A DNA stretch of 64,000 nt from the NCBI RefSeq assembly GCF_044324875.1, contig NZ_CP172185.1; one strand, given 5' to 3'. Position numbers and translations under genes: made by a program. Below, piece by piece: positions 35,305-53,995 of the stretch (position 1 is the first letter of the stretch; the number at the start of each line of letters is the position of its first letter). The notes below the pieces were generated by a model. The model searched no databases. It worked only from the letters and a program-made list of their open reading frames with translations, and was not told where the DNA came from. The DNA is from Escherichia coli (GTDB taxonomy: Bacteria; Pseudomonadota; Gammaproteobacteria; Enterobacterales; Enterobacteriaceae).

Positions 35305-35381
35305 GCGTTCATAGCTCAGTTGGTTAGAGCACCACCTTGACATGGTGGGGGTCGTTGGTTCGAGTCCAATTGAACGCACCA
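35305..35381 (+). tRNA. valV: tRNA-Val (GAC)
   Basis: GCGTTCATAGCTCAGTTGGTTAGAGCACCACCTTGACATGGTGG...CCA, 77 nt. Confidence 0.95.
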
Positions 35382-35385
35382 TCCT

Positions 35386-35462
35386 GCGTCCGTAGCTCAG
35401 TTGGTTAGAGCACCACCTTGACATGGTGGGGGTCGGTGGTTCGAGTCCACTCGGACGCACCA
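35386..35462 (+). tRNA. valW: tRNA-Val (GAC)
   Basis: Second copy 4 nt downstream, GCGTCCGTAGCTCAG...CGCACCA. Confidence 0.95.
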
Positions 35463-35496
35463 GATTTTCTTAATCTGGTCTTCTCCTTTTTTCCCT
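35460..35496 (+). terminator. valVW terminator
   Basis: CCAGATT-TTCTT-AATCTGG followed by TCTTCTCCTTTTTT. Confidence 0.6.
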
Positions 35497-35570
35497 CTGT
35501 TTCTTCTCTGTATCCAATACGTTAAAAGATTTACACTGTCTTCGTATGCGTTATCAGAAGGAGAATCGCT

Positions 35571-35876
35571 ATGGCAACTTTGTTACAACTTCATTTTTCT
35601 TTCAATGGCCCATTTGGCGACGCAATGGCTGAGCAGCTTAAACCGCTTGCTGAGTCGATTAATCAGGAACCTGGTTTTCTGTGGAAGGTATGGACAGAAA
35701 GTGAAAAGAACCACGAAGCCGGTGGGATCTACCTTTTTACTGATGAAAAAAGCGCCCTTGCCTATCTGGAAAAACATACTGCCCGACTGAAAAATCTCGG
35801 CGTTGAGGAAGTTGTCGCCAAAGTTTTCGATGTCAATGAGCCACTTAGTCAAATCAGTCAGGCAAAACTCGCCTGA
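35571..35876 (+). CDS. ydhR: Putative monooxygenase YdhR
   Basis: 101 aa; K-12 synteny. Confidence 0.85.
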
Positions 35877-43563: not shown

Positions 43564-43803
43564 TTAAAATCACTAAGCAAGAAATTATAAGTGAACTGAT
43601 ATTTATTATCATTTGAAATAAATTTAACTTAAACGACAATTATTTGTGACGTTCATTGCAGAAAATAAAAATAACATTATCGTTATAAATTAAAATACAT
43701 ACCGAAATTCGTATAATTTCAGCAGTTGTTATTTAGAATGATTAACTGGACCACAACTAAACTAACAATATCAGGATGAAGCTTACCGCCTCATCCTGAA
43801 TGG

Positions 43804-52889: not shown

Positions 52890-53258
52890 CTATACCCCAA
52901 AGCTTTCGCCACAGCCACATTCATTCTGGGCTTTAGGGTTGTGAAATTTGAATATCTGATTAAGTCCTTCACGAACGAAATCGACTTCCGTGCCATCAAT
53001 AAACGGCATCGCTTGCAGCGGGACAAACAGCTTCGCGCCGTCGTGTTCAAACAGCAGATCGTCTTTGTCCGGCTCGCTAACACTGTCGAGCACATAGCCA
53101 AAGCCCGCGCAGCCCGTTTGCTTCACGCCTAAGCGCACGCCGACCATACCCGGCTGCTTTGCCACCAGCTCGCGTATGTGGACAGCGGCTGCGGGTGTCA
53201 GCGTTAAGCCCTGCCAGGCGAAATCCTGTGGATTAAAGGTTCCTGAATGCATGTCCAT
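52890..53258 (-). CDS. sufA: Fe-S cluster A-type carrier SufA
   Basis: 122 aa with C-terminal CGCGESF motif. Confidence 0.95.
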
Positions 53259-53300
53259 CGATTTACCTCACTTCATCGCTTTCAGCGTATAACAGCATGT

Positions 53301-53320
53301 TAGTGATAATGATTATCAGT
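53301..53320 (-). promoter_or_regulatory. Fur box in sufA promoter
   Basis: TGATAATGATTATCA about 45-60 bp upstream of sufA start. Confidence 0.6.
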
Positions 53321-53534
53321 TCAACCCAGCAAACGCAGGGGCTTTACCGTAAAACATGCTTTTTTCCTGCTTTTAATAAGCATAGACCCTGATGTGTGGG
53401 TTAACAGGCACGCTAAGAATTAGGTATCTCATTGTTAGATAATGATTATTATCTAAGGAGCATTAAGGCTGTGATGAAAAAGAAAAAGTTGTATTGAAAA
53501 TGACTATTTAAGAGATAGGTAAAAAAGTGCAGCG

Positions 53535-53605
53535 TTCAGAAATAAGAAAACCCTTAAGTCTGTGCGACACAGGCTTAAGGGTTTCTACCCCATCCGGCGC
53601 TTATC
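53535..53605 (-). ncRNA. Candidate small RNA (possibly rydB) ending in a minus-strand intrinsic terminator
   Basis: Perfect palindrome AAACCCTTAAG...CTTAAGGGTTT at 53549-53589 followed on the minus strand by UUCUUAUUUCU; the rydB assignment is from memory of its K-12 location, not its sequence. Confidence 0.3.
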
Positions 53606-53806
53606 TCCGGCACTCTCAGTGGCTTAGCTCTTGAAGGGGCGATAAGAATAATCTCATAAAGCTAACCCGCCGTTTTAACACAAACTGCGATTAGTATTAT
53701 TTTTGAACAATATCAGGCGGGTAGATAAGCAGTATTAAGAAGGTCATCGAACCTGGACGGAGGTTAATCCAGGTCGATTTGGCGAAATTGCGGCATTAAG
53801 TCAGGA

Positions 53807-53995
53807 TCAATGCACGCCCAGACGCCAGGCAAAGTAGATTTCTTCTTTTAATTCAGCAGAAGAGAGAGTAAGCAGGTCAGCAAATTCAAGTTCTAGTTGT
53901 TTCAGACGTTTGAGATATTGGGCAGGTGAAAGATTGCTCTGGTCACGGCGTAAAAATTCAATGGCCAGCTGGGTGGGATCAAGTTGAGTAGACAT
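53807..53995 (-). CDS. ydiH: Small protein YdiH
   Basis: 62 aa from MSTQLDPTQLAIEFL; upstream part of track ORF rejected. Confidence 0.7.
   Translation of the reverse strand: MSTQLDPTQLAIEFLRRDQSNLSPAQYLKRLKQLELEFADLLTLSSAELKEEIYFAWRLGVH

Follow-up and report, generated by a model that had tools for sequence, protein, structure and literature searches.

What does the 548-bp intergenic region between sufA and ydiH contain, and does it, apart from the promoter of the suf operon, hold a second Fur operator and a terminator serving both strands? The question arises from a sequence-only reading of the window (the whole 64,000-nucleotide stretch of Escherichia coli DNA considered here), which described this stretch as the sufA upstream region, with a Fur box, a second Fur-like palindrome and a bidirectional terminator-like palindrome. 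The identification of the locus itself is borne out: the 1-kb segment around these features, found in 5421/5426 genomes, matches many complete E. coli genomes at 100% identity, and the annotated flanking genes in these are sufA and ydiH. The open reading frame list and the annotation of the identical genomes place the intergenic region at 53259-53806, with sufA (52890-53258, minus strand), the intergenic region, ydiH, menI and ydiJ following one another on the minus strand; sufA encodes 122 amino acids and is the first gene of sufABCDSE, as indicated by its open reading frame and by the annotation of identical E. coli genomes and of K-12. In comparison to K-12 MG1655, positions 53240-53830 of the window are 99% identical, differing by four substitutions and one 1-bp indel.

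Based on the analysis below, we consider it very probable that the interval consists of two adjacent, previously described minus-strand units, namely, the control region of sufABCDSE and the small RNA (sRNA) gene rydB. Every component matches a described element (the Fur, IscR, IHF and OxyR sites of PsufA, rydB, and an sRNA terminator) and is already known, and the importance of the finding is correspondingly small, being that of a textbook suf promoter and a catalogued sRNA described again. Our comparative set comprises 80 Enterobacteriaceae loci gathered with SufA. Throughout, sequence identity, motif matches, conservation, covariation and strand asymmetry are taken from the data, and protein binding, transcription start sites and the actual RNA 3′ end are taken from the literature or inferred.

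Closest to sufA, a core promoter can be read from the sequence of the minus strand at 53297-53324, with a -35 hexamer TTGAAC (53324-53319), a 16-nt spacer, and a -10 hexamer TAACAT (53302-53297). We would place the transcription start site of sufA at 53290, so that 32 nt separate it from the ATG; this is reportedly also the start site of the 2004 study by Lee and co-workers. The placement is consistent with both the geometry of the hexamers and the IscR-site mutation '-50 C' that PMC12594620 quotes. The whole of the promoter spacer is occupied by a Fur box, TGATAATGATTATCA, at 53304-53318 (listed without strand), corresponding to -14 to -28. With 0/14 mismatches to the 7-1-7 Fur consensus, the box is one of three sites with ≤2 mismatches in the window, against 0.17 expected from shuffles, and it is identical in K-12 by alignment. 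It is furthermore retained in 79/80 Enterobacteriaceae loci, where it carries ≤2 mismatches and lies between -60 and -68 relative to the ATG, with conservation scores near 9/9 across the 80 loci. The Fur box that had been read at 53303-53317 is thus a genuine element, although its position was given one base off.

The K-12 sufABCDSE promoter has a Fur operator that was reportedly described by Outten and colleagues in 2004 and by Lee and colleagues in 2008, and the box at 53304-53318 shares its sequence, its position in the promoter spacer and its Enterobacteriaceae-wide conservation; we find no difference between the two, the box simply being that operator in a different E. coli strain. Repression of sufABCDSE by Fur is established in the literature (PMC12594620 among other sources), and published reporter work takes the proximal box as the Fur site of the sufA promoter (PMC12594620). 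The box is the known Fur operator of this promoter, at which Fe-Fur, bound between the -35 and -10 hexamers, would exclude RNA polymerase. Elsewhere in the window, a third Fur-box-like site, TGATATTTATTATCA, with one mismatch to the 7-1-7 consensus, lies at 43597-43611 in the AT-rich fumD-ydhY intergenic region.

Adjoining the Fur box is an IscR type-2 site (ORE-III), AAAGCCCCTGCGTTTGCTGGGTTGAA, at 53320-53345 on the minus strand (-30 to -55), which we assign from its match to the consensus and from its conservation. The site shows 0 mismatches to the type-2 consensus, with 0 such matches expected by chance, and both of its ends are conserved across the 80 loci. Activation of sufABCDSE by IscR is likewise established in the literature, and PMC12594620 refers to mutants of the IscR site at -56 to -50; apo-IscR would be expected to activate sufA from this position. 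We note that the strongest conservation of the whole suf upstream region falls on neither of these sites, but on a block, CAGGGTCTATGCTTATTAAAAGCA, at 53370-53392 (minus strand, about -80 to -102), which scores near 9/9 across the 80 loci and holds the dyad TGCTT-N5-AAGCA. This block sits between the IscR site and the IHF site described below, is distinct from the four elements (Fur, IscR, OxyR and IHF) named in the sequence-only reading, and might be the NsrR site mentioned in reviews.

We now turn to the second palindrome, which had been placed at 53446-53465. A palindrome does exist, but it lies ten nucleotides away, at 53436-53455 (TAGATAATGATTATTATCTA, listed without strand; -146 to -165), and is 18/20 self-complementary, with 8-nt arms and a 4-nt non-palindromic center. 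Its description as Fur-like holds in the sense that it carries 2/14 mismatches to the 7-1-7 consensus (5/19 to the 19-mer consensus), which is above chance; since a Fur-like site of this kind arises in just 0.3% of cases when the intergenic region is shuffled by dinucleotides, the likeness is no by-product of local AT-richness. However, the Fur-like form is not conserved, being kept with ≤2 mismatches in only 3/81 orthologous sequences (the window and two further Escherichia lineages, L006 and L007), and it is a minority allele within E. coli itself. At position 53445 (plus strand), in the center of the palindrome, the window has an A (GATTAT) where K-12 has a G (GGTTAT), with the K-12 allele carrying 3/14 mismatches, and a third variant, GCTTAT, is present in the GTDB E. 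coli representative (L003). The window haplotype occurs in 1977/5414 complete E. coli genomes and the exact K-12 haplotype in 3258/5414, and the less Fur-like allele is present in about 60% of E. coli genomes, K-12 among them.

In phylogenetic footprints, conservation of this region is limited to its promoter-proximal half, at roughly 53431-53447, with the pattern A..CATTAT.TA.CAAT. This half coincides with an IHF site (ORE-II) at 53425-53447 on the minus strand, composed of a core, TAACAATGAGATA (53437-53425), and a 5′ A/T-rich flank, AATCATTAT (53447-53439), the CATTAT of which is conserved in the footprints of the 80 loci. The core in the window matches WATCAANNNNTTR at 7/9 positions and is thus weak in this strain, whereas most other genera read AATnCATTATTWATCAATGCATTGAAC here and have a perfect WATCAANNNNTTR core (AATCAATGCATTG) at the aligned position. 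Across 81 sequences, the core is perfect in 45, has one mismatch in 24, and has two mismatches in 12, Escherichia among them. With the start site at 53290, the conserved IHF block extends from -135 to -157, in agreement with the ORE-II/IHF element, which reportedly spans -156 to -127 in the 2004 work of Lee and co-workers. Because only the IHF half is conserved, and because the position of the block matches that of ORE-II, the palindrome is very probably IHF flank for the most part: its proximal arm comprises the IHF A/T flank and the first bases of the IHF core, and its distal arm a variable, Escherichia-specific extension that mimics a Fur box. The palindrome does overlap a mapped site, as had been anticipated, but this is the IHF element and not a Fur site. 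Compared to the ORE-II/IHF site of PsufA (Lee et al. 2004), the position of the conserved block fits and the orthologues supply a perfect core; what differs is that the Escherichia core is degenerate (7/9), and that its upstream flank has been drawn out into a palindrome that resembles a Fur box and varies within E. coli.

It could nevertheless be argued that the distal palindrome is a functional second Fur operator, at which Fe-Fur blocks IHF bending and OxyR activation, at least in GATTAT strains. This explanation draws on the two mismatches out of 14, on the excess of Fur sites in the window and the rarity of such sites among local shuffles given above, and on the NATWAT hexamers in the palindrome, two of them perfect and a further one inverted. 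We nonetheless regard it as quite unlikely, as it is difficult to reconcile with a Fur-like form that is restricted to 3/81 orthologues and replaced by a three-mismatch allele in about 60% of E. coli, and with a distal arm that evolves like an unconstrained flank, even inside Escherichia. In addition, its location 146-165 bp ahead of the transcription start site puts the palindrome away from the polymerase, and the Fur site in the reporter work cited above (PMC12594620) is the proximal box. A narrower version, in which the distal palindrome acts as a low-affinity Fur operator overlapping the IHF site in the GATTAT strains (~37% of E. coli), such that Fe-Fur antagonizes IHF bending and OxyR activation of suf, seems to us more doubtful still; were it true, iron status would be coupled to the peroxide response in a strain-specific manner, a coupling absent from K-12. 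The Fur-like appearance of the palindrome is lineage-specific and polymorphic, and annotating a Fur site here from sequence alone is unwarranted.

The GATAAT arm of the same palindrome also invites a different explanation, in which it serves as the -10 hexamer of a secondary, Fur-repressible sufA promoter (ATCACA-16-GATAAT, 53475-53448, minus strand) that gives rise to a long-leader transcript. A promoter scan does return a 9/12 match for this pair of hexamers, and the Fur-like sequence would cover the -10 and +1 positions; however, promoter-like matches of this kind number 3 against 1.5 expected, which is not significant, neither hexamer is conserved outside Escherichia, and a second sufA transcription start site was not found in the literature. 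We therefore give this explanation hardly any credence.

Returning to the elements of the suf control region proper, the most distal of these is a conserved block at 53484-53518 (minus strand, about -194 to -228), the conservation of which across the 80 loci and the position of which fit ORE-I, the OxyR site far upstream. The classical OxyR 37-mer motif gives 7/20 mismatches at two places, a match that is weak and non-discriminating, and because the motif is too degenerate, we assign the OxyR region by conservation and by coordinates only, the OxyR site reportedly extending over -236/-196 in the 2004 study of Lee and co-workers. A far-upstream OxyR site at the suf promoter is described in a review, and reviews also support both a role of IHF at PsufA and a looping model involving OxyR and IHF. 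In such a model, IHF would bend the DNA at about 53425-53447 (-135 to -157), and this bend would bring oxidized OxyR, bound far upstream at about 53484-53518, to the polymerase at the promoter.

Upstream of the OxyR block lies the last of the features in question, the putative terminator. A 41-bp perfect palindrome had been proposed at 53549-53589, but self-complementarity over this interval amounts to no more than 8/41; the actual palindrome occupies 53548-53584, and consists of two 17-nt arms around a 3-nt loop with one mismatch (94% complementarity). The mismatched bases, T53559 and G53573, would form a U·G wobble on the plus strand and an A·C mismatch on the minus strand. The minus-strand U-tract, in contrast, withstands scrutiny, in the form of a T-rich run, TTTTCTTATTTCT, from about 53550 down to 53538. 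Read on the minus strand, the element at 53536-53584 thus has the layout of an intrinsic terminator, with a stem-loop (53584-53548) followed by the U-tract UUUUCUUAUUUCU. The minus-strand hairpin has a calculated folding free energy of -22 kcal/mol (z = -4.2). In the 25-sequence alignment (A2), the terminator helix comprises 15 pairs, with 96% of cells paired and compensatory changes at 10/15 of the pairs, and the full four-helix structure of this alignment has observed values that are reached by 0/500 shuffles and by no slid controls. A simple terminator scan returned 0 matches, as its rules are unable to bridge the internal C·A mismatch; we attribute this miss, because of that mismatch, to a limitation of the tool and not to absence of a terminator.

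The table of RepRanger (PMC12306157) labels rydB 'RIT', a Rho-independent terminator. Compared to canonical Rho-independent terminators of enterobacterial sRNAs, the element shares the stem-loop, the U-rich tail on the transcribed strand and the covariation of the stem; it differs in having a long stem of 17 bp that is relatively rich in A/U and, in this strain, contains an A·C mismatch, and in having an interrupted U-tract (UUUUCUUAUUU). We also considered a REP or other repeated element and rejected it, as the 1-kb region is single-copy per genome and RepRanger calls the hairpin RIT, not REP.

Whether this terminator acts in both directions, as had been suggested, can be judged from its strand asymmetry. 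A bidirectional terminator would serve minus-strand transcripts as well as plus-strand (antisense-suf) transcripts, and the palindrome does fold on both strands, with the plus-strand fold being slightly more stable (-26.3 kcal/mol, z = -7); moreover, the internal mismatch position would wobble on the plus strand in 9/25 orthologues. The U-tract, however, is confined to the rydB strand, where the stem is followed by UUUUCUUAUU, 8/10 of which is T, the mean across 25 orthologues being likewise 8/10. On the plus strand, the stem is followed by CUACCCCAUCC, with no U-tract; the corresponding count, for A in the stretch that precedes the stem on the rydB strand, has a mean of 3.2/10 across the orthologues and is 2/10 in most genera. 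There is also no convergent plus-strand gene, nor a credible plus-strand promoter, aimed at the hairpin. Wobble cells across the orthologues give a mixed picture that leaves the strand unsettled, with 22 favoring the rydB strand (13 of these at the basal pair) and 12 the other. Taken together, the asymmetry of the U-tract makes a bidirectional terminator highly improbable, and we read the hairpin as, in all likelihood, a one-directional Rho-independent terminator belonging to rydB.

That the hairpin belongs to rydB and not to the suf promoter is indicated by comparison of the loci. A profile search of the 80 loci finds rydB in 24, always on the sufA strand and upstream of sufA, and the hairpin lies directly 3′ of rydB, contiguous with it, in 24/24 of these. 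Four of the loci (L017, L018, L021 and L026, from two Salmonella enterica subspecies and two Citrobacter) have rydB 870-1886 nt from sufA; compared to a gap of ~380 nt between rydB with its terminator and the suf promoter in Escherichia, they contain 0.9-1.9 kb of extra DNA. In these four long-gap loci, the hairpin stays with rydB, and the OxyR, IHF, IscR and Fur blocks stay with sufA. It is because of this contiguity in every locus, including the four in which the two units are separated, that we assign the hairpin to rydB.

The same comparison bears on the possibility that the hairpin mainly stops read-through from ydiH-menI-ydiJ and so insulates the suf promoter, with rydB being a processed 3′ fragment. 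This would be in line with the location of ydiH, menI, ydiJ, rydB and sufA on the minus strand, and with a hairpin that ends ~20 nt before the OxyR block. We consider it unlikely, given that a conserved TGnGAnTAT, with a variable spacer upstream, lies directly 5′ of rydB, and that the hairpin remains fused to rydB where other DNA parts them from sufA. Insulation of the suf promoter is nevertheless compatible with the hairpin as the terminator of rydB, as a secondary effect. In the favored reading of two adjacent units, rydB would be transcribed from about 53640-53652 towards sufA, the transcript would stop at the stem-loop 53584-53548 and the U-tract, and the terminator could also halt rydB/ydiH read-through ~20 nt before the OxyR site, thereby shielding the suf control region.

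The sRNA gene itself is readily identified. The Rfam family RF00118 (rydB) matches 53580-53640 on the minus strand over the full model (positions 1-61), at 81.6 bits (gathering score, 50). K-12 rydB (b4430, 1764713-1764780), annotated as 68 nt, aligns to 53585-53652 on the minus strand, ending one base before the hairpin. Together, these support the earlier suggestion that the 3′ end of a minus-strand sRNA lies here and that K-12 rydB falls in this interval. The match shares the ydiH-sufA synteny of the RF00118 family, of K-12 b4430 and of Salmonella rydB (tpe7, IS082), with differences in where the RNA is taken to end: the 68 nt annotated in K-12 and the 61 nt of the Rfam model reach no further than the edge of the terminator or its first few bases, whereas the terminator is part of the 105-nt Salmonella annotation and of rydB as our comparison of loci delimits it. 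The Salmonella annotation places rydB at 1450415-1450519, between ydiH and STM1368 (PMC2515195). Because the terminator hairpin and U-tract end rydB, its primary transcript should be ~100 nt long. E. coli RydB has, however, reportedly been seen as a ~60-nt band, and a shorter processed form may therefore be the abundant species. In either case, the 68-nt K-12/RefSeq feature and the Rfam model omit a conserved, covarying terminator, and target predictions, Hfq-binding analyses and deletion designs made from those coordinates would use a truncated RNA.

In contrast to the freely varying terminator stem and flanks, the rydB core is invariant in the 25 orthologues. Two stretches, CCTTCAAGAGCTAAGC and GAGnGCCGGAGATAAGCGCCGG (53592-53637, minus strand; columns 17-33 and 40-61 of alignment A2), are near-invariant, with one column excepted, across Escherichia, Salmonella, Citrobacter, Leclercia, Silvania and Pseudenterobacter. 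As to the RF00118 structure, the outer helix has compensatory changes at 2/4 pairs, and the inner two helices are near-invariant (one non-paired cell) and hence uninformative. Conservation of the rydB body beyond the needs of base-pairing suggests that it has a sequence-specific partner; in the literature, rydB is still without a confirmed target.

The sequence TATGAGAnTAT (53648-53658, minus strand) is also conserved across the 25 orthologues, with variable sequence just upstream, and from this conservation we propose a candidate extended -10 element for rydB, TGaGATTAT, at 53648-53656 (minus strand). If this element is real, a candidate transcription start site would lie near G53640, which is where the Rfam model begins. 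Further upstream, separated from TATGAGAnTAT by a variable spacer of ~14 nt, a conserved block, CGCAGTTTGTGTTAAAA (53673-53691, minus strand), resembles the marbox (SoxS/MarA/Rob) consensus with 2 mismatches. With 10 such matches in the window where 16 are expected, the marbox consensus occurs no more often than by chance, and we treat this resemblance as a lead only. RydB is listed as SoxR-dependent in an array study from 2007 that used paraquat.

Two minor observations may be added. Close to ydiH, ~35 nt downstream of its stop codon, an inverted repeat, CCTGGA-N10-TCCAGG, can be read at 53752-53773 on the minus strand, and may be a weak ydiH terminator or a stabilizing stem. In the rest of the window, Rfam matches above the gathering score, besides rydB, are found at 26322-26712 (minus), 35305-35459 (plus), 35424-35587 (minus) and 59245-59352 (plus), and comprise STnc550 (396 bits), two tRNAs, the 'HPnc0260' antisense family, which overlaps the second tRNA, and RprA.
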